The notes: generated by a model not told the origin, from the sequence alone. Positions 3,544-14,849 are shown, counted from the stretch's first letter. The stretch: DNA of 64,000 nucleotides from an uncultured Eubacteriales bacterium (GCA_902492065.1 CABUKE010000001.1:257347-321346); one strand, 5' to 3'. Made by a program: numbers and translations.

Positions 3544-4113
3544 CTAAGATTCATAAGTTTTCAAAATTCCCTGTGCGACCTCCATCTTTGTCATACGCAT
3601 GTCCATGGCCTGCTTCTCGATATAGCGGTGCGCCTGCTGTTCCGTCATATTCAGGTATTGAATCAGCGCGCATTTAGCCCGGTCGACAAGACGGATTTCC
3701 TCAATTTTTGTTTGCAACTGGACGTTTTCCTTCCGCAGGCCGAGCAGCCTGCGGCGCGCCGTCACGGTCAGCCGCACTGCCTGGAAAAAGAATGCGCGGT
3801 TGACTGGTTTTGGCATGACAAAAACGCCGCTTTCCTCCACACGGCTGGACACTTCATCCGCGGCCTCCCCCTTTACAAGAAGCATAACGCTGGCATTTGC
3901 CTTCCGGCTGAGCGTTATGGCAAGGTCGTGCCCAAACTCGTCGGGGAGGGGGGCGTTGATAAATATGTAATCGAAATCCGTTTCATTGACAATTCGCCTT
4001 GACTCGCTTCCGCTTGCAACAGTTGTAACTGGCCCAAGATCGAGTGAAGACAAAAGCGAGGTCAACAGTTTGGCCGCTTTTTCCGACCCGGCAACGACAA
4101 GTACATGCTCCAT
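3544..4113 (-). CDS. ANTAR-domain RNA-binding antiterminator with an atypical receiver (NitR/AmiR-like)
   Basis: The C-terminus EEIRLVDRAKCALIQYLNMTEQQAHRYIEKQAMDMRMTKMEVAQGIL is an ANTAR domain. The N-terminus is receiver-like but lacks the DD pair and has N at the acceptor position (YIFINAPLPD). An RBS (AAGGGGGAAG) precedes the ATG. The gene lies 33 nt downstream of glnA. Confidence 0.85.
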   Translation of the reverse strand: MEHVLVVAGSEKAAKLLTSLLSSLDLGPVTTVASGSESRRIVNETDFDYIFINAPLPDEFGHDLAITLSRKANASVMLLVKGEAADEVSSRVEESGVFVMPKPVNRAFFFQAVRLTVTARRRLLGLRKENVQLQTKIEEIRLVDRAKCALIQYLNMTEQQAHRYIEKQAMDMRMTKMEVAQGILKTYES

Positions 4114-4146: not shown

Positions 4147-5448
4147 CTATATCCGGTGAAAATAAAGGGCGTGCTCTGCCTTCTGCCGGTCTGTACCTGC
4201 TATCCGGGCAATCTCGCTTTGTTTTTGGGCAATATATGTTTTTAGCAGCAGTTCCGGGACGTGTGCAGAGACAAAAGCGCTGTCTTGTGCCAAGACGAGC
4301 GCTTCGTCCAAACGCTCCGGCAATATAGCTAAGGAAGTATCCTGCTCGCACAGGTTCCGGTCTGTTTCCGGCTGGAGCGGCATCTTTTGCTCAATTCCGT
4401 CGAGCCCGGCGTGCATAATAAGCGCCAGTGACAGATATGGGTTGCAAGCTGGGTCGGGCGAGCGCAGCTCGATCCGCTGCTGGTCGCCGGAGGCCGCAGG
4501 AATCCGGATAAGCTGGAAGCGGTTCTGGTGCGACCAGGTTACATACTGGGGCGCCTTGTTCCCGCCAAGCCGCAGATACGAGTTGGTCAGCGGGTTCAAA
4601 AATGCGGTGATTTCACAAATGCGCGCCAATATCCCAGCAGTAAAGCTGTCCGCCTCCGCCGTGTATTCGGCGTCCTTATCAAAAATATTACGTCCGCCGC
4701 ACAGCAGGGAGAGATTTATGTGCAGGCCGTTTCCACTGTGACTGGCGAGCGGCTTCGGCATAAAGGAAGCGTACAGGCCGTTTCCGGCGGCAGCCGTTTT
4801 GACTACGGTTTTAAAAGTAATCAGGTTATCCGCCGCCTCCAGTGCACCGCTGAAACGAAAGTCAATCTCGTTTTGTCCGGGACCCTGTTCGTGGTGCGAC
4901 GTTTCCGGCGCAATGCCCATTTCCTCAAGTGTGAGGCAGATTTCCCGCCGGATATTTTCTCCCTTGTCAGCAGGGGCAACGTCCATGTATCCGCCGATGT
5001 CGTGCGGCGTTTTGGTTGGCTCTCCGTTTTCATTTTGTTTGAACAGATAAAATTCGCACTCCGTTCCGACCTGGCATGTATAGCCCATACGTTCCGCACG
5101 TTCTACCGCGCCGCGCAAGATATGGCGGCAGTCGCCCTCGAACACGCTCCCGTCCGGATAGCGGATGTCGCAGTAGAGACGCGCAACCCGTCCCTGCGCG
5201 GGGCGCCAGGGCAGCACGGACAGGGTGGAAGGGTCGGGAAAGAGAAACAAATCCGAATGCGTAAGACTTTGAAACCCGCGGATTGCGCTTCCATCAAACG
5301 GGATTCCGGACGCAAATGCGTCTTCGAGCTTTTCCGGGAGGATGGATATATTTTTCTGCGTGCCAAAGATGTCGCAGAAGGCGAGCCGGATGAACTTCAC
5401 GTCGTTCTCCGCCACAAACTGCAACACTTCGGAAGCTTTGTATTTCAT
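4147..5448 (-). CDS. glnA: glutamine synthetase, type I
   Basis: MKYKASEVLQFVAENDVKFIRLAFCDIFGTQKNISI...GTECEFYLF...HHEQGPGQNEIDF...RIELRSPD are GSI signatures. The track ORF (to 5670) has a 74-codon extension with no homology. The ATG at 5448 is preceded by GGAAAGG. Confidence 0.9.
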   Translation of the reverse strand: MKYKASEVLQFVAENDVKFIRLAFCDIFGTQKNISILPEKLEDAFASGIPFDGSAIRGFQSLTHSDLFLFPDPSTLSVLPWRPAQGRVARLYCDIRYPDGSVFEGDCRHILRGAVERAERMGYTCQVGTECEFYLFKQNENGEPTKTPHDIGGYMDVAPADKGENIRREICLTLEEMGIAPETSHHEQGPGQNEIDFRFSGALEAADNLITFKTVVKTAAAGNGLYASFMPKPLASHSGNGLHINLSLLCGGRNIFDKDAEYTAEADSFTAGILARICEITAFLNPLTNSYLRLGGNKAPQYVTWSHQNRFQLIRIPAASGDQQRIELRSPDPACNPYLSLALIMHAGLDGIEQKMPLQPETDRNLCEQDTSLAILPERLDEALVLAQDSAFVSAHVPELLLKTYIAQKQSEIARIAGTDRQKAEHALYFHRI

Positions 5449-5496
5449 ACTGTCACCGTAACCTTTCCGCCGGAGCGCCGGCACTGCTTGCCTGTT

Positions 5497-5525
5497 TCTC
5501 AAAAGGGCAGAGGCTGGCTCTGCCC
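5497..5525 (-). terminator. terminator-like hairpin in the gltB3-glnA spacer (candidate attenuator)
   Basis: The minus-strand RNA reads GGGCAGAG-CCAGC-CUCUGCCC followed by UUUUGAG. An upstream GGCAG could compete for the CUGCC 3' arm. Confidence 0.45.
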
Positions 5526-5564
5526 GCTCAATGCTGTATCCTGCCGTTTCTATTGTACCATGTC

Positions 5565-6287
5565 TTAATTGTGTGTGTAAAGCTGCCGGTACGGATTTTT
5601 GGTGTTTGGCCGCAGAACATAAAAGGGATGCGGCAAAATTGCGGAGATATCCACGCCAAATTCTTTGCAAAATGTTTCAATATAGGGCCGGATTGCCGCC
5701 ATATCCCCCGATGTGGCGGGCGAAACCGACACCTGCGCGGGCAAATTGTCTGGTGCTTCTTTGCAGCGCAGATAGATTGCGCCGCCGTGCATACCCGTTC
5801 CGCAGAAAGGACCGATAGGGACGCTGCCGCCGCACCCAAGCCCTAAGACGATAATAACGCCGCCGGCCTGGTACTCGCCCAAAAAGCTTCCGGCTCTGCC
5901 GCCAACCACAAGAACAGGAAGTTTATCCTGATACGCTTTCATGTGGATGCCGGCGCGGTAGCCCACGTCGCCGCGTACATAGATGCTGCCGCCGCGCATG
6001 GCGTAGCCGGTTGCGTCGCCGCAGTTGCCGTTTATGAGGATGCGTCCCGCGTTCATGGTGTCGCCCGTCGCCTCCTGTGCGTTGCCGTTCACGATGATTT
6101 CTGCCCCGTTCAGGTAGGCACCGAGCGCGTTTCCGGGCGTGCCGTTTATGACGATTTTCTTACCGGCAAGTCCGTCTGCTATATACCGCTGTCCGACGCA
6201 TTGATCAATTACAATTTCTTTGTCCGGAGCGCGCCGAACAGCGTCGTTGAGCGTTTTAAAATGCATGTCATTTGCAGTAATGTTCAT
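5565..6287 (-). CDS. glutamate synthase GXGXG (alpha-subunit C-terminal, domain 3-like) protein
   Basis: Repeated beta-helix GXGXG motifs are present (INGTPGNALGAYLNGAEIIVNGNAQEATGDTMNAGRILINGNCGDATGYAMRGGSIYVRGDVGYRAG). An RBS (GAAGGAGTG) precedes the ATG at 6287. Confidence 0.8.
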   Translation of the reverse strand: MNITANDMHFKTLNDAVRRAPDKEIVIDQCVGQRYIADGLAGKKIVINGTPGNALGAYLNGAEIIVNGNAQEATGDTMNAGRILINGNCGDATGYAMRGGSIYVRGDVGYRAGIHMKAYQDKLPVLVVGGRAGSFLGEYQAGGVIIVLGLGCGGSVPIGPFCGTGMHGGAIYLRCKEAPDNLPAQVSVSPATSGDMAAIRPYIETFCKEFGVDISAILPHPFYVLRPNTKNPYRQLYTHN

Positions 6288-7770: not shown

Positions 7771-9276
7771 TTATTCGCCTGCGTGGAGGATACCAAGTAT
7801 ATCAAGCTCCTTCTGCGTCAGGCCAACTCCGCGCAGCATCAGCCGGTTACCGCGCAGCGCCTCAATGGAGTTAATCCCCATGCCGCCCATCATCTCGCGG
7901 ATTTCGTGGTCCCATGCGCGTACCAGATTGACAAGCCGCTCTGCCCCCACATCCGGGTCGAGCCGCGCCACCAGGTCAGGCCGCTGGGTCGCAATGCCCC
8001 AGTTGCATTTGCCGGCGTGGCAGCTCCGGCACAGATGGCAGCCGAGCGCCAGCAGGGCCGCGGTCGCAATATAGACGGCGTCCGCGCCGAGCGCAATGGC
8101 TTTTACGACATCCGCGCTGCTGCGGATGGAGCCGCCGCACAGGATGGAAACATTCCCACGGATGCCCTCGTCGCGCAGACGCTGGTCGACGCTCGCAAGC
8201 GCAAGCTCAATCGGGATGCCGACGTTGTCGCGAATCCGCGTCGGCGCAGCACCCGTCCCACCACGGTAGCCGTCGATTGCGATGATGTCCGCTCCGCTCC
8301 GCGCAATGCCGCTCGCAATCGCCGCGATGTTGTGGACGGCGGCAACCTTTACAATGATTGGCTTTGTATAGTTCGTTGCTTCCTTTAAAGAATAGACGAG
8401 CTGGAGTAAATCCTCGATGGAATAGATGTCGTGGTGCGGCGCAGGGGAAATCGCGTCCGAGCCCTCCGGTATCATACGGGTACGCGACACGTCCCCGACG
8501 ATTTTTGCGCCGGGTAAATGTCCGCCAATGCCGGGCTTTGCGCCCTGGCCCATTTTGATTTCAATCGCCGCACCCGCTGTCAGATACGCTTCATGGACGC
8601 CGAACCGGCCAGAGGCTACCTGGACAATTGTGTTTGCACCATAGGGGTAAAAATCTTCGTGGAGGCCGCCCTCGCCCGTGTTGTAGCAGATGCCAAGCTC
8701 CTGCGCCGCGCGGGCAAGGCTCGCATGCGCATTGTAGCTGATTGAGCCGTACGACATGGCCGAGAACAGCACCGGCACCGCAAGCTCGAGCTGCGGAGAG
8801 AGATTGTTTATCAGCTTCCCGTCTGTGCCGCGTTCGATTCGGTCCGGCTTTTTGCCGAGAAAGGTTCTGGTCTCCATTGGCTCGCGGAGCGGGTCAATGG
8901 AAGGATTCGTCACCTGCGACGCGTTGATTAGAATTTTATCCCAGTAAACAGGGAGCGGCTTCGGCGTACCCATGGACGAGAGCAATACGCCGCCGCTCTC
9001 CGCCTGCCGGTAGATTTCCGTAATGACCTGCCCGCTCCAGTTTGAATTGTCGCGGAAGGCGTGATCTGTTTTTACGATTTTCAGTGCGCGCGCCGGACAT
9101 ACGGCTACACAGCGGTGACAGTTGACGCACTTGCTCTCGTCGGCTACCATTTTGCCGCTTGCTTCGTCATAGCGGTGTACCTCGTTGGCGCACTGCTTCT
9201 CGCAGAGGCGGCAGTTGATACAGCGGTCGAAATTGCGAACGACCTCATAGGGCGGGTAAAAATAATCCAATGCCAT
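7771..9276 (-). CDS. glutamate synthase FMN-binding (domain 2-like) subunit with an N-terminal 2x[4Fe-4S] ferredoxin domain
   Basis: MALDYFYPPYEVVRNFDRCINCRLCEKQC...CVNCHRCVAVCP gives two CxxCxxCxxxC motifs. These are followed by the GltB FMN-domain core (...GQGAKPGIGGHLPG...GGTGAAP...). Its ATG overlaps the upstream stop (TAATG at 9274-9278). The track extension to 9684 overlaps the upstream gene. Confidence 0.85.
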   Translation of the reverse strand: MALDYFYPPYEVVRNFDRCINCRLCEKQCANEVHRYDEASGKMVADESKCVNCHRCVAVCPARALKIVKTDHAFRDNSNWSGQVITEIYRQAESGGVLLSSMGTPKPLPVYWDKILINASQVTNPSIDPLREPMETRTFLGKKPDRIERGTDGKLINNLSPQLELAVPVLFSAMSYGSISYNAHASLARAAQELGICYNTGEGGLHEDFYPYGANTIVQVASGRFGVHEAYLTAGAAIEIKMGQGAKPGIGGHLPGAKIVGDVSRTRMIPEGSDAISPAPHHDIYSIEDLLQLVYSLKEATNYTKPIIVKVAAVHNIAAIASGIARSGADIIAIDGYRGGTGAAPTRIRDNVGIPIELALASVDQRLRDEGIRGNVSILCGGSIRSSADVVKAIALGADAVYIATAALLALGCHLCRSCHAGKCNWGIATQRPDLVARLDPDVGAERLVNLVRAWDHEIREMMGGMGINSIEALRGNRLMLRGVGLTQKELDILGILHAGE

Positions 9277-10367
9277 TATAACACACCTCCGTCCAGTTTG
9301 ACAATAACGGGTTCTCCGCCGCGCGGCGAATAAACCCGGTCGAGCTCTGGCGCAATTACGCGGATTGCGCACTCTTCGCTCGCAATGTATACCATGTCGT
9401 CCTTTTCTCCAACCACCATGGAGCGTAGCTTGAGCCGGTCGTTGAGCGCCATCATGCCGCCCTCGAACCCCAGCAGGATCGAAAACGGCCCCGTGACCAG
9501 CAGGTTTGCGAATGCGTTGCGCAGGTAGGTCAGCCGCTCGCGTTCCGGCGCGGGCTTTGATTCGATCGTGCTCCAGAAGGGCGCGGCAATGACATTTGCC
9601 ATTTCCTCCAGCGTCAGCCCCTGTTTGCGCAGCAAGTAGTCGACCATATAGGTGATGACCTCCGTATCGGTCAGAAGCGTGCATTGGTAGCCGAACATCT
9701 CAATAAAGCGCCGGTTCGCGTCATAGGAAGAGATCTCCCCATTATGTACGACCGAATAGTCGAGCATGGCAAATGGGTGCGCGCCGCCCCACCAGCCCGG
9801 CGTGTTTGTCGGGTAGCGGCCGTGCGCCGTCCAGCAGTAGCCCTCGTACTCATCGAGCCGATAGAACGTCCCGACGTCCTCCGGAAAGCCCACCGCCTTG
9901 AACACGCCCATGTTCTTTCCGCTCGAGAACACATATGCACCGTCGATTTGCGTGTTGATGCGGATGACGCTGCGCACGACGAACTCCTTTTCGTCGAGCT
10001 GGCTGTCGGCCAGTTTCGTGTGCAGCGGGGTAACAAAGTAGCGCCAGATGAGCGGTTCGTCGGTGATTGCCTTTGTTTTCCGAATTGGTATCTTGGACAG
10101 ATTCACAACGTCGAAGTGGCGGTCTAAAAACTTTTCACACGTTTCCTTTGCCTCCGTGCTGTCATAAAAGACGTGAAACGCATACAAATCTTTGTATTCC
10201 GGATAGATGCCGTAGCCAGCAAAGCCGCCGCCCAGCCCATTTGAACGGTCGTGCATTACCGCGATGGATTTGATGATCGCCTCGCCGCTCTGCCTCCTGC
10301 CTGACTTGGAAAACAGGCCGGATATGGCGCAGCCGGAAGGAATTCGGATTTCGCCCTCTCGCTTCAT
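9276..10367 (-). CDS. class II glutamine amidotransferase (glutamate synthase domain 1-like) subunit
   Basis: MKREGEIRIPSGCAISGLFSK...NGLGGGFAGYG...HGRYPTNTPGWWGGAHPF...VHNGEISSY is Ntn-type GATase-2-like. The ATG at 10367 is preceded by GGAGGT. The upstream part of the track ORF lies inside the leader hairpin. Confidence 0.8.
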   Translation of the reverse strand: MKREGEIRIPSGCAISGLFSKSGRRQSGEAIIKSIAVMHDRSNGLGGGFAGYGIYPEYKDLYAFHVFYDSTEAKETCEKFLDRHFDVVNLSKIPIRKTKAITDEPLIWRYFVTPLHTKLADSQLDEKEFVVRSVIRINTQIDGAYVFSSGKNMGVFKAVGFPEDVGTFYRLDEYEGYCWTAHGRYPTNTPGWWGGAHPFAMLDYSVVHNGEISSYDANRRFIEMFGYQCTLLTDTEVITYMVDYLLRKQGLTLEEMANVIAAPFWSTIESKPAPERERLTYLRNAFANLLVTGPFSILLGFEGGMMALNDRLKLRSMVVGEKDDMVYIASEECAIRVIAPELDRVYSPRGGEPVIVKLDGGVL

Positions 10368-10385: not shown

Positions 10386-10444
10386 CAGAAAAGCAAAACG
10401 GCGCTCCACAGCAAAGAGAAAATGCTCTCTGCCGCGAACGCCGT
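10386..10444 (-). terminator. leader terminator/attenuator hairpin of the glutamate synthase operon
   Basis: The minus RNA reads ACGGCGUUC-(internal loop)-GCAGAGAG-CAUUUU-CUCUUUGC-(internal loop)-GGAGCGCCGU followed by UUUGCUUUUCUG. It lies between the consensus promoter and the RBS. Confidence 0.5.
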
Positions 10445-10457
10445 TGTTCTGTAATGT

Positions 10458-10486
10458 ATTATAGCCTGTTCACTTAATTTTGTCAA
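10458..10486 (-). promoter_or_regulatory. sigma-A type promoter for the glutamate synthase-purA-glnA operon
   Basis: The minus strand reads TTGACA (10486-10481), a 17-nt spacer, then TATAAT (10463-10458). Both hexamers are perfect. Confidence 0.55.
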
Positions 10487-10640
10487 GAGAAAAATGAAAA
10501 ATTTTGCAATTTATTATGTATTTGTTGCATTATACTCTTGTGTTGTCCGAGAACAGCTTAAAAAAACAGATAAAAATGAAACATAATAAAGAAAAACTTG
10601 CAAAACCGGCAAAAAAACTTGAGAAAATTTTAAAAAAGTC

Positions 10641-10669
10641 TTGACAAAGCGAAAAAATGGGTGTATACT
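10641..10669 (+). promoter_or_regulatory. sigma-A type promoter upstream of type III glutamine synthetase
   Basis: TTGACA (10641-10646), a 17-nt spacer, then TATACT (10664-10669). Confidence 0.55.
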
Positions 10670-10685
10670 TGCAAATGTAAACAGC

Positions 10686-10731
10686 AAAGGCGCTGTGAGG
10701 GTTGTTCTCACGGCGCTTTCTTTGTTTTTTT
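10686..10731 (+). terminator. promoter-proximal intrinsic terminator (leader attenuator or short sRNA end) before GSIII
   Basis: AAAGGCGCUGUGAG-GGUUGUU-CUCACGGCGCUUU followed by CUUUGUUUUUUU. It starts about 10 nt after the predicted TSS and lies 78 nt before the GSIII ATG. Confidence 0.6.
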
Positions 10732-10808
10732 GCACACGCTTTGTTTAACCGCTTAATATTATTAAGTGGGGGCGGTGTCTGTGGATAATTTTTGGAGGAG
10801 GTCTTTTT

Positions 10809-12899
10809 ATGAGCAACATACCGGAACTGTTTGGAAGCTTAGTGTTTGACGACAAGGTCATGCGCGAGCGGCTGCCAAAGGCAACGTATAAAGAACTGCA
10901 AAAAACGATCAAAGAAGGCAAAAACCTGGAGATCGGGGTTGCTAATGTTGTTGCAAACGCGATGAAGGACTGGGCGGTGGAAAAGGGCGCGACCCACTAC
11001 ACCCACTGGTTCCAGCCTATGACGGGGATTACGGCGGAAAAGCACGACAGCTTTATTACACCGGACGGCGACGATTCGGTTATCATGGAGTTTTCCGGCA
11101 AGGAACTCATCAAGGGCGAGCCGGATGCATCCTCCTTCCCGTCGGGCGGGCTGCGGGCGACGTTTGAGGCGCGCGGCTACACGGCGTGGGACCCGACCTC
11201 ATACGCATTTATTAAGGATGGAACACTCTGCATACCAACCGCGTTCTGTTCCTACAGCGGCGAGGTGCTCGACAAAAAGACGCCGCTTTTAAAGTCAATG
11301 GAGGAAATCGACAAGCAGGCGATGCGGATTCTGCGCCTGTTTGGCAATACGACGGCGAAGCACGTCATTACGACCGTCGGGCCGGAGCAGGAATACTTTC
11401 TGGTAGACAAAAAAATGTATGACCAGCGCAAGGATTTGATTTTTACCGGCCGGACGCTGTTCGGCGCAAAGGCGCCCAAAGGGCAGGAGCTTGAGGACCA
11501 CTATTTCGGCGCAATCAAGCCGCGCGTGGTTGCCTATATGAAGGAGCTGGATGAGGAGCTTTGGAAGCTGGGGATTCTGGCAAAGACGAAGCACAACGAG
11601 GTTGCGCCTGCCCAGCACGAGCTTGCGCCGATTTTTGGTACGACAAACGTGGCGACTGACCATAACCAGCTCACTATGGAAGTGATGAAAAAGGTTGCGC
11701 TTAGACACGGGCTGGTGTGTCTGCTGCATGAGAAGCCGTTTGCCGGCGTAAACGGCAGCGGCAAGCACAATAACTGGTCGCTGTCGACCGACGAGGGCGA
11801 AAACCTGCTCGACCCGGGGAAAACGCCGTATAAAAACACTCGGTTTTTGCTGTTCTTGGCTGCGGTCATCAAGGCAGTCGACGAATATCAGGATTTGCTC
11901 CGTCTCAGCGTGGCGAACGCGGGCAACGACCACCGCCTGGGCGCGAACGAAGCGCCGCCGGCGATTGTGTCGATGTTTATCGGCGACGAGCTGGAGGAGA
12001 TTCTGGACGCGATTGAGAACGGCACCCCCTACGAAAAAAGAGAGCGTCCGATCATGGAAACAGGCGTCCACGCTCTGCCGAATTTTACAAAGGATACGAC
12101 AGACCGGAACCGGACGTCGCCGTTCGCCTTTACCGGGAACAAGTTTGAGTTCCGGATGCTTGGCTCCACGTTTTCGGTGGCTGGGCCGAACATTCTGCTC
12201 AACACGATGGTAGCTGAGGAGCTGGAGCAGTTTGCCGGGAAACTGGAGCAGGCGGACGACTTTGAAGCAGCGGTTAAAGAGTTGATTAAAACGACAATCC
12301 ATGCGCACAAGCGTATTATTTTCAACGGCAATAACTATTCGGATGAATGGGTCAAAGAGGCGGAAAAACGCGGGCTTTTAAACCTCAAAACAACGCCGGA
12401 TGCACTTCCGTACTTTGTAGCGGAGAAAAATATCGAGCTGTTTGAAAAGCATGGGATTTTTACCGAGGCGGAGGTACGCTCGCGCTGCGAGATTATGCTG
12501 GAAAACTACAGCAAGGTCATCAATATCGAGGCTCTGACCATGATCGACATGGCGCGCAAGGAGATCATGCCTGCTGTGATGTCGTATACCAAAGACCTTG
12601 CCGAAACGGCAGCCGCGAAGAAAGCGCTGTTGGGCACGGCTGTATGCGAGGCGGAAGAGGCGCTCGTGACGAAGCTTTCGGCGCTGAGCGCAAGCCTGTA
12701 TAAACGGACAGAAGCGCTTGAACATGCGCTCATTGGCGTGAAGGACTATTCTGCCGCGGCGGAAACTGCCATGTATTACAAGGATAATGTTTTGTCGGCT
12801 ATGCAGGAGCTGCGCGTTGTGGCGGATGAGATTGAGACTCTGGTTGGGGAGAAATACTGGCCGTATCCGACCTACGGAGACCTGCTGTTCGGCGTGTAA
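10809..12899 (+). CDS. glutamine synthetase, type III
   Basis: The 696-aa product starts [41 protein letters not shown]...[12 protein letters not shown]...[10 protein letters not shown]. Both length and motifs are typical of GSIII. A GGAGGAGG RBS is present. Confidence 0.9.
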
Positions 12900-12928
12900 A
12901 AACAAAACTGCACCGTAGCATACACAAA

Positions 12929-12976
12929 GGCGTGTATTTCAGACATGGGAACGTGTCTGAAATACACGCCTTTTTA
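12929..12976 (+). terminator. intrinsic terminator after GSIII
   Basis: GGCGTGTATTTCAGACA-TGGGAACG-TGTCTGAAATACACGCC followed by TTTTTA. Confidence 0.8.
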
Positions 12977-13049
12977 TCTGTATAGGCAAACCGGATACGG
13001 CGGCAGTTTAACATAGATTTATACTTTTTATTTTTAAGGAGGAATTGCT

Positions 13050-14849
13050 ATGCCGGAAACAATCACATTGACGGGCAATGCTTTGGATTTGTTCAATGTA
13101 TTCAGCCCAGCGGTTGATACTATTTGGATTTTGCTGGGAGCGGCGCTCGTATTTTTTATGCAGGCGGGGTTCGCTATGGTGGAAACGGGGTTTACCCGGG
13201 CGAAAAACGCTGGAAACATCATTATGAAAAACCTGATGGACTTCGCGATTGGCACGCCGACCTACTGGCTGGTCGGATTCGGGATCATGTTTGGACCGTC
13301 TGTGGCGGGGCTGTTCGGCGTGCCAGGATTTGACACTATGTTTGTAACACCAAGCGGTGACTTTGACTTTGCAACGCTGATTTTCCAGACTGTATTCTGT
13401 GCAACGGCGGCAACCATTGTATCTGGTGCGATGGCAGAGCGTACAAAATTCAGCGCATATTGTTTGTACAGCTTTATCATCAGTTTGGTGGTATATCCGG
13501 TGTCCGGACATTGGATCTGGGGCGGCGGCTGGCTTTCGCAGCTGGGCTTCCATGATTTTGCCGGTTCTACGGCGGTACATATGGTCGGTGGTGTTGCGGC
13601 TCTGGTTGGTGCGGCAGTCCTCGGCCCGCGAATTGGCAAGTACGATAAAAACGGAAAGCCAAAAGCGATTCCGGGTCACAGCCTGACGCTCGGCGCGCTC
13701 GGCGTATTTATCCTGTGGTTCTGCTGGTTTGGGTTTAACGGCGGCTCATCAGTTTCTATGACAAACCTTGCTTCAGTAGAAGGCGCATCCAATATTTTTG
13801 AAGCGGTAAATACAACGGGCTGGACGGCAAGTATTTTTGTAACGACGAACCTTGCAGCGGCGGTAGCGACTGTGGCAACTATGTTGATTACGTGGATACG
13901 GTATAAAAAGCCGGACGTATCCATGACGCTCAACGGATCGTTGGCGGGCCTTGTTGCAATTACGGCGGGTTGTGATACGGTGGATCCTATGGGCGCTGCG
14001 ATTATAGGGCTGATTGCCGCGTTCGTTGTTGTATTTGGGATTGAGTTTGTAGACAAAAAGCTCCATGTGGACGACCCTGTTGGCGCAGTCGGCGTACACG
14101 GTATGTGTGGCGCGACGGGTACACTGCTTGTCGGCTTGTTCTCGACAGGCTACAGTACGGCGGCACCCGGCCTGTTCTACGGCGGCGGCTTTACACTTCT
14201 CGGTGTGCAGGCGCTCGGCGTGCTGGCTGTTATTGCATGGGTTGCAGTGACGATGACGCTTGTCTTCTTTGCAATCAAACACACGGTTGGCCTGCGCGTG
14301 TCGGCGGAGGAGGAAATTGCCGGGCTTGACAGTACAGAACATGGCCTTGTCAGCAGCTATGCAGACTTTATGCCTGCGGCTGACCTCGCGGTTCGGCCGA
14401 TGGCTGCAAAGATGGAAAAAGCCCCCGTTCCAGTTGAACAGGCGGTTCCGGTTGAGCTGCGGCAGATGCCAGAGGGAACGGCTTCTGCTTCAGATGTGAA
14501 GCTCACCAAAATTTCAATTGTGACAAAGCAAAGCATGTTTGAAGCCCTGAAGGAGGCAATGAACGACATCGGCGTAACGGGAATGACCGTCACGAACGTG
14601 CTCGGATGCGGTGTACAGAAGGGCGCGCCGGAGTATTACCGCGGCGTTGAAGTCGACATGCATCTGTTACCGAAAATCAAGGTAGAAATCGTAGTCTGCA
14701 AGGTGCCGGTCAAGACGGTGATTGAGGCGGCGAAGAAGGCGCTCTATACCGGCCATATTGGCGACGGCAAGATTTTTGTCTATGATGTGGAGGACGTTAT
14801 CAAGGTGCGTACTGGGGAATCGGGCTTTGATGCGCTCCAGGACGATTGA
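13050..14849 (+). CDS. amt: ammonium transporter fused to a C-terminal PII (GlnB/GlnK) domain
   Basis: The N-terminal ~430 aa are Amt (FFMQAGFAMVETGF, GHWIWGGGWL, AVHMVGG, VHGMCG). After a ~60-aa linker comes a PII domain, KLTKISIVTKQSMFEALKEAMNDIGVTGMTVTNVLGCGVQKGAPEYYRGVEVDMHLLPKIKVEIVV...GDGKIFVYDV (nt ~14499-14846). An AAGGAGG RBS is present. Confidence 0.9.
   Translation: MPETITLTGNALDLFNVFSPAVDTIWILLGAALVFFMQAGFAMVETGFTRAKNAGNIIMKNLMDFAIGTPTYWLVGFGIMFGPSVAGLFGVPGFDTMFVTPSGDFDFATLIFQTVFCATAATIVSGAMAERTKFSAYCLYSFIISLVVYPVSGHWIWGGGWLSQLGFHDFAGSTAVHMVGGVAALVGAAVLGPRIGKYDKNGKPKAIPGHSLTLGALGVFILWFCWFGFNGGSSVSMTNLASVEGASNIFEAVNTTGWTASIFVTTNLAAAVATVATMLITWIRYKKPDVSMTLNGSLAGLVAITAGCDTVDPMGAAIIGLIAAFVVVFGIEFVDKKLHVDDPVGAVGVHGMCGATGTLLVGLFSTGYSTAAPGLFYGGGFTLLGVQALGVLAVIAWVAVTMTLVFFAIKHTVGLRVSAEEEIAGLDSTEHGLVSSYADFMPAADLAVRPMAAKMEKAPVPVEQAVPVELRQMPEGTASASDVKLTKISIVTKQSMFEALKEAMNDIGVTGMTVTNVLGCGVQKGAPEYYRGVEVDMHLLPKIKVEIVVCKVPVKTVIEAAKKALYTGHIGDGKIFVYDVEDVIKVRTGESGFDALQDD

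Follow-up and report, generated by a model that had tools for sequence, protein, structure and literature searches.

The glutamate synthase (glt) operon, the type III glutamine synthetase gene (GSIII, glnN) and an AmtB-PII fusion gene of this uncultured Eubacteriales bacterium are each preceded by a leader that is very probably an ANTAR-type attenuator, the three forming the nitrogen regulon of a single ANTAR protein encoded at 3544-4113. The window is the whole stretch of DNA that was analysed, 64,000 nucleotides long, and all coordinates are counted from its first letter. The first bases of each terminator's 5' arm can alternatively pair upstream, which yields a hairpin of 4-6 bp, hereafter P1. 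The attenuators belong to the NitR/GnfR type but carry one hexaloop only; the kind of control is known and the single hexaloop is what distinguishes it.

The glt and glnN units diverge from a region of 441 nt in which two predicted promoters lie back to back. The minus-strand genes are, in order, the amidotransferase domain, the FMN/Fe-S subunit, purA, the GXGXG subunit, type I glutamine synthetase (GS-I) and the ANTAR gene. The glutamate synthase on this strand is split, with its GXGXG subunit at 5565-6287. The genes that matter for the argument are:

3544-4113, minus strand: gene for an ANTAR protein of 189 aa, the proposed NitR-like antiterminator (PF03861 at 8e-16, and PF00072)
4147-5448, minus strand: GS-I, directly upstream of the ANTAR gene, candidate nitrogen sensor
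9276-10367, minus strand: glutamate synthase amidotransferase-domain gene, with which the regulated minus-strand operon begins
10809-12899, plus strand: GSIII (glnN), downstream of the plus-strand leader
13050-14849, plus strand: AmtB-PII fusion gene, downstream of the third attenuator

In the last of these, a single ORF of 599 aa (13050-14849) encodes both the ammonium channel and PII. The predicted regulatory elements are:

10458-10486, minus strand: sigma-A promoter for the glt operon, TTGACA-17-TATAAT, 12/12 consensus matches
10436-10449, minus strand: P1 antiterminator hairpin in the glt leader, GAAC-AACGGC-GUUC, with its hexaloop at 10445-10440
10386-10445, minus strand: intrinsic terminator in the glt leader, its stem at 10445-10399 followed by a U tract at 10398-10386
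10641-10669, plus strand: sigma-A promoter of the GSIII (glnN) unit, TTGACA-17-TATACT, 11/12 consensus matches
10681-10696, plus strand: P1 antiterminator hairpin of the glnN leader, ACAGC-AAAGGC-GCUGU, hexaloop 10686-10691 with A1 and G4
10686-10731, plus strand: intrinsic terminator of the glnN leader, 15-bp stem 10687-10719, U tract to 10731
12920-12937, plus strand: P1 hairpin of the amtB leader, the third copy, between glnN and amtB, AUACAC-AAAGGC-GUGUAU, model match at E 0.01
12926-12980, plus strand: terminator that overlaps this P1, with a stem of 20 bp and its U tract at 12971-12980
5552-5581, minus strand: internal promoter-like site, TTTACA-18-TGgTACAAT (extended -10), 10/12 matches

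A consensus scan placed the minus-strand -35 and -10 boxes at 10486-10481 and 10463-10458 and the plus-strand boxes at 10641-10646 and 10664-10669; promoter-like sites numbered five against 1.3 expected from shuffles. Both terminators consist of a G+C-rich stem-loop followed by a U tract, and their folds are far more stable than those of shuffled sequences, at -31.2 kcal/mol (z -4.55) on the plus strand and -35.1 kcal/mol (z -5.32) on the minus strand, with 0 of 200 shuffles equally stable in either case. Between the end of the -10 box and the first paired base lie 11 nt on the plus and 8 nt on the minus strand, so transcripts would start about 1-6 nt ahead of the structure. The original prediction of near-perfect promoters that each run into a strong terminator is thus borne out by the hexamer matches and z-scores, and its reading as apparently constitutive initiation with conditional termination is supported, since the consensus promoters abut the terminators and this layout is kept in dozens of Clostridia. 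Its further statement that both terminators lie well upstream of the ribosome binding site holds for the plus strand, where the U tract ends at 10731 and the RBS GGAGGAGG stands at 10794-10801, but fails for the minus strand, where the U tract ends at 10386, only 4 nt from the SD AAGGAGG at 10382-10376. Downstream of the glnN leader terminator, ahead of the GSIII start, an AT-rich palindrome, CTTAATATTATTAAG, occupies 10752-10766 and folds as an RNA hairpin of 9 bp.

The P1 loops of the glnN, glt and amtB leaders (AAAGGC, AACGGC and AAAGGC) all carry A at position 1 (A1) and G at position 4 (G4), in keeping with the ANTAR recognition rule; these two bases are the determinants of hexaloop recognition (PMC3369936). 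In the glnN leader the 5' arm of the terminator consists of the hexaloop and the 3' arm of P1. The amtB attenuator differs in that it has no promoter of its own. The two folds were compared by their predicted free energies: the terminator and the P1-forced fold stand at -27.5 and -13.7 kcal/mol in the glnN leader, -35.1 and -21.9 in the glt leader and -37.9 and -20.2 in the amtB leader, an advantage of 13-18 kcal/mol for the terminator throughout. P1 alone ranges from -3 to -6.5 kcal/mol, the extremes being glt (-3.0, only 4 bp) and glnN (-6.5). With a terminator so much more stable and a P1 so weak, termination should be the default, and read-through would require something that stabilises P1.

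When the whole genome (2.14 Mb) was scanned for the structure, the three window sites were the only clean ones. Covariance model R1 likewise ranked them first to third, with E-values of 2.6e-7 (glnN), 0.003 (glt) and 0.01 (amtB), the next match being at 0.25. Two further matches in the same genome (E 0.25 and 0.35) did not pass the structural scan and were rejected. Rfam, searched with permissive E-values, returned nothing beyond chance matches to terminator-like sRNAs, all far below the gathering scores.

Conservation was examined in other Clostridia at 80 loci surrounding GSIII homologues; in about 50 of them the P1-terminator element lies ahead of GSIII, of divergent gltB and of amtB. About 65 sites of the single-hexaloop type were collected from about 50 Clostridia genomes. 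In order to avoid circularity, P1 was also sought among 88 terminators picked solely for an AANGG[CT]G start: a P1 stem of at least 4 bp was present at the exact 6-nt-loop register in 55 of the 88, against at most 2 at any shifted register, which argues that P1 is not an ascertainment artefact.

The covariation was evaluated in alignment A1, which holds 42 sequences. For P1, 92.9% of the cells are paired, 49 double-sided changes occur and the covariation score is 0.69 versus 0.235 in shuffled alignments (0/500 as high). The lower stem of the terminator, a structure predicted independently by RNAalifold, is paired in 93.6% of the cells, with 61 double changes and a covariation of 0.60 versus 0.29. 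Columns 16-20 take part in both pairings, with columns 5-9 in P1 or with columns 52-56 in the terminator, and compensatory changes are found in both. A three-way covariation of this kind among aligned sequences is the signature expected of a terminator/antiterminator switch. Loop positions A1, A2 and G4 are invariant across the 42 aligned sites. The third base of the hexaloop varies freely (A, C, G or U) and yet its column 12 covaries with column 60, a terminator base; judging from the alignment, it seems to be the terminator fold, not the protein, that limits this loop position.

The promoters are conserved along with the hairpins. Of 67 related sites, 52 have a promoter ahead of the hairpin, all with at least 5/6 matches in the -35 box and 43 with at least 11/12 overall; the promoterless sites are mostly the internal amtB ones. 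The end of the -10 box is 5-15 nt from P1 in 50 of these 52 (mode 10-11) and 21 nt in the other two. The back-to-back layout is seen again in 13 further species, the loops lying 112-224 nt apart. Such recurrence, together with promoters at 52/67 sites, shows that the arrangement is not due to chance.

The genes downstream of 95 sites include GSIII (42), gltB (14), amtB (10) and GS-I (3), and besides these asnA and pyrG (both read by eye), an argD-like aminotransferase and a class I amidotransferase. In several relatives, C. methylpentosum among them, a protein of 335 aa is encoded between leader and GSIII, which by eye we take to be an AsnA-type asparagine synthetase; such an AsnA-like protein stands ahead of GSIII at loci L001, L002, L009, L035, L103 and L109. 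The protein in this pre-GSIII place in Ruminococcus flavefaciens (L075) is presumably a CTP synthase. The regulon thus seems to take in enzymes that consume glutamine or ammonia as well. At one locus, L123 (G114:C15), tandem attenuators with loops AAGGGC and AAAGGA were seen at 3760 and 3809, between the ANTAR gene and GSIII.

The genome (2.14 Mb) has no ANTAR gene besides that at 3544-4113, which lies 6 kb from the divergent leaders, inside the regulated operon itself. Across 150 genomes sampled over the class, R1 matches occur in 63 and an ANTAR gene in 81. Both are present in 56 genomes and both missing in 62, while 25 have the ANTAR gene only and 7 the motif only, hence the motif was found in 56/81 ANTAR-positive versus 7/69 ANTAR-negative genomes (Fisher p 5e-14, a value that overstates the support because the genomes are related and motif and ANTAR gene share one gene cluster). 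With a threshold of E<=1e-3 an ANTAR gene accompanies the motif in 41 of 43 motif-positive genomes, the two exceptions being 83% and 93% complete. In at least 27 genomes the motif lies less than 10 kb from the ANTAR gene on the same contig, as read by eye and not by script from the coordinates. The co-occurrence of motif and ANTAR gene amounts to strong support for the link, not to proof.

Loops AACGAC and AAUGAC, in which G4 is kept and G5 replaced by A, were observed ahead of glnA-ANTAR gene pairs at two loci negative by the model, L132 and L134 (G149 and G122). Since R1 misses such loop variants, the model undercounts the family, which explains at least some of the 25 ANTAR-positive genomes without motif.

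Control by something other than an ANTAR protein, whether a riboswitch, another RNA-binding protein or effects of nucleotide pools or Nus factors on a leaky terminator, with P1 as a mere stabiliser of the 5' end, is quite improbable. Hairpins at the 5' terminus do stabilise mRNAs in Firmicutes, and seven motif-positive genomes lack an ANTAR match, but five of the latter are weak matches (E>0.005) and two are incomplete genomes. A hairpin of 14-18 nt, moreover, offers no ligand pocket and has no matching Rfam family, the intergenic region contains no TnrA/GlnR box (TGTNAN7TNACA), and the core C-AANGGC-G, which does not vary, is identical to a site that an ANTAR protein has been proven to bind.

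That site is the one of GnfR from Geobacter, which binds in vitro to RNA with CAGGCAANGGCGCC overlapping the terminators of nitrogen-fixation leaders (Ueki and Lovley 2010, PMC2995071); without GnfR, nifH transcripts terminate prematurely (PMC2995071). Matches to an ANTAR RNA element have furthermore been listed before GS, glt and amt genes of several Firmicutes (Table S2, PMC3369931). A 2025 review gives every ANTAR target as a dual hairpin and mentions neither NitR nor GnfR (PMC12591593). By the dual-hexaloop definition (Ramesh et al. 2012) an A1/G4 hexaloop, its overlap with the 5' arm of a terminator and an ANTAR gene in the genome are all found here, while the tandem of P1 and P2 is missing. 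A second A1/G4 hexaloop was sought in the apical loops and both downstream and upstream of P1, and none was found. The apical loops of the terminators measure 3-10 nt without conserved sequence, and 0 of 11 apical hexaloops have A1/G4; any second A..G.. hexaloop hairpin exists at only 3/67 sites. The -10 box is so near to P1 that it leaves no room for a second hairpin upstream.

These counts render it quite improbable that the leaders are canonical dual-hexaloop sites in which an apical or an upstream hairpin partners P1, in spite of a weak upstream candidate in the amtB leader (UGC-ACCGUA-GCA) and of the span of 45-55 nt of the GS and amt matches in Firmicutes reported by Ramesh et al., which would fit P1 plus an apical hairpin. 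The original prediction was right that the textbook two-hairpin ANTAR site is absent, as there is no second A1/G4 hexaloop. It had also judged the leaders too short for a classical riboswitch or such a two-hairpin site and the read-through mechanism unclear. That leader length excludes ANTAR, or that the mechanism is unclear, finds no support: P1 covaries with both of its partners and co-occurs with ANTAR genes, and its core equals the GnfR RNA site (PMC2995071). Besides, the structure of EutV with RNA has redefined the minimal ANTAR binding unit as one hexaloop (PMC8934654).

A consensus promoter followed by a terminator would yield abundant short RNAs, and the plus-strand unit had been suggested to be a stand-alone sRNA of about 55 nt. 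We consider it highly improbable that functional sRNAs of about 50-60 nt are the purpose of these units, for example in titrating the ANTAR protein like EutX/Rli55, as the hexaloop is fully paired in the terminated fold and hence cannot be bound, and as the element also occurs within operons without a promoter, such as the copy before amtB, and always immediately ahead of nitrogen genes in the same orientation. The two leaders do share a complementarity of 9 nt (ACAGCAAAG / CUUUGCUGU, 10681-10689 versus about 10414-10406 of the minus-strand leader), but this is missing from the 13 other back-to-back pairs, and pairing of the leaders in trans was dismissed as chance. That ordinary terminators or insulators happen to lie near promoter-like sequence is hardly credible, since even if a consensus scan alone is no evidence of function, a module of promoter, P1, terminator and nitrogen gene kept in dozens of species, with compensatory changes in both alternative pairings, already contradicts it.

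Having thus returned to ANTAR-type attenuation, we consider the regulator and its signal. Similarity of the 3544-4113 protein is highest to Rv1626 (2.6e-12), followed by EutV (2e-5), AmiR (6e-5) and NasR (2e-4). According to the alignment, Asn occupies the phospho-acceptor position of its receiver-like domain, where Asp would be expected (DYIFINAPLP), and the domain lacks the N-terminal acidic pair; no kinase signature was found in the regulator. Because the acceptor Asp is missing, phosphorylation is unlikely as an input. The phosphorylatable receiver of the GnfK/GnfR case is not seen here, and the domain is instead like the AmiR-type pseudo-receivers. Pseudo-receivers of the Asn type are common to most orthologues that follow a GS-I gene, and the pair of GS-I and ANTAR gene is kept in 16 of 20 ANTAR loci. 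In AmiC/AmiR of Pseudomonas aeruginosa a non-phosphorylated ANTAR pseudo-receiver is sequestered by a ligand-binding partner encoded alongside. Our protein resembles AmiR as a pseudo-receiver ANTAR protein whose neighbouring gene is a candidate controller; AmiC, however, is an amide sensor similar to periplasmic binding proteins, whereas the neighbour here is a glutamine synthetase, and their interaction is a proposal. Gene adjacency and the missing Asp suggest, on the model of AmiC-AmiR and of GS-TnrA in Bacillus, that GS-I (or PII) may sequester or release the ANTAR protein.

Of two promoter-like sites found versus 0.2 expected, the one at 5581-5552, within the 3'-terminal part of the GXGXG gene and ahead of GS-I, may give GS-I and the ANTAR gene a basal expression that is independent of the glt leader. 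The spacer before GS-I (5449-5564, minus strand) contains a hairpin, GGGCAGAG-CCAGC-CUCUGCCC, followed by UUUUGAG. This spacer was rejected as a fourth site, because it lacks a C-AANGGC-G hairpin and was not called by the terminator scan.

Among the known systems, GnfR of Geobacter sulfurreducens is alike in that an ANTAR regulator acts on a C-AANGGC-G core with complementary arms at the 5' side of a terminator (CAGGCAANGGCGCC). The same core is present in the window and in the 42 aligned sites, and as with GnfR and NitR several nitrogen-gene leaders occur per genome. The differences are that GnfR has a phosphorylatable receiver and a kinase, GnfK, in contrast to the Asn acceptor position and the pairing with GS-I found here; that the Geobacter promoters are RpoN-dependent and regulated, whereas those in the window are near-consensus sigma-A promoters; and that the targets are nif genes there but glnN, gltB and amtB here. 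NitR of C. saccharobutylicum, as far as it is described in PMC6316151 (citing Stutz 2007) and PMC4676874, is reported to act by GS/GOGAT antitermination under nitrogen limitation. In those accounts it is a clostridial ANTAR protein encoded beside glnA, thus the same glnA-ANTAR gene pair as in the window, but antisense RNAs belong to the C. saccharobutylicum system as it is described there, and no sign of any was found here. In EutV/EutW of Enterococcus faecalis an A1/G4 hexaloop is likewise bound and the hairpin excludes the terminator (Ramesh 2012, PMC3369931), with the dimer touching one hexaloop at a time in the EutV structure (Walshe 2022, PMC8934654). The eut leaders, however, have two hexaloop hairpins, of which P1 is always formed and P2 competes, whereas here it is the single hairpin that competes; and EutV is a true response regulator, with only modest similarity to our protein (E 2e-5).

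For the mechanism we infer binding by the 3544-4113 protein, the direction of the nitrogen response and the path of the signal. RNA polymerase would start at the near-consensus sigma-A promoter, and P1, with its stem of 4-6 bp, a closing C-G pair and the hexaloop AA(A/C)GGC, would be made within the first 20 nt. If the loop stays unbound, the downstream 3' arm would displace P1, the P1 loop and 3' arm would become the 5' arm of the terminator, and termination would free a leader of about 50-60 nt. Under nitrogen limitation an ANTAR dimer on the A1/G4 hexaloop would keep P1 closed; only the apical hairpin could then form, at least 10 nt from the U tract, with read-through as the result and transcription of gltB and the genes that follow it, glnN and amtB-PII delivered. 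We put forward only tentatively, as a possibility that is rather doubtful at present, that this represents a distinct clostridial design with a single hexaloop antiterminator at the 5' end, constitutive promoters and a pseudo-receiver set by contact with GS-I instead of phosphorylation.

If true, such a circuit with glutamine synthetase as the sensor would be the RNA-level counterpart of GS-TnrA/GlnR in Bacillus and a natural proof that one hexaloop suffices for co-transcriptional antitermination. The control logic would be one of strong, unregulated initiation, with the whole decision taken at a terminator a few dozen nt downstream. About 65 natural cases in which a single ANTAR hexaloop appears to be sufficient bear on the one-hexaloop model of EutV-RNA recognition. 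The element has no Rfam entry, and the alignment and model can be used for its annotation. The attenuators would account for the joint switch-on of GSIII, glutamate synthase and the ammonium channel in this bacterium and in many gut and rumen Clostridia.
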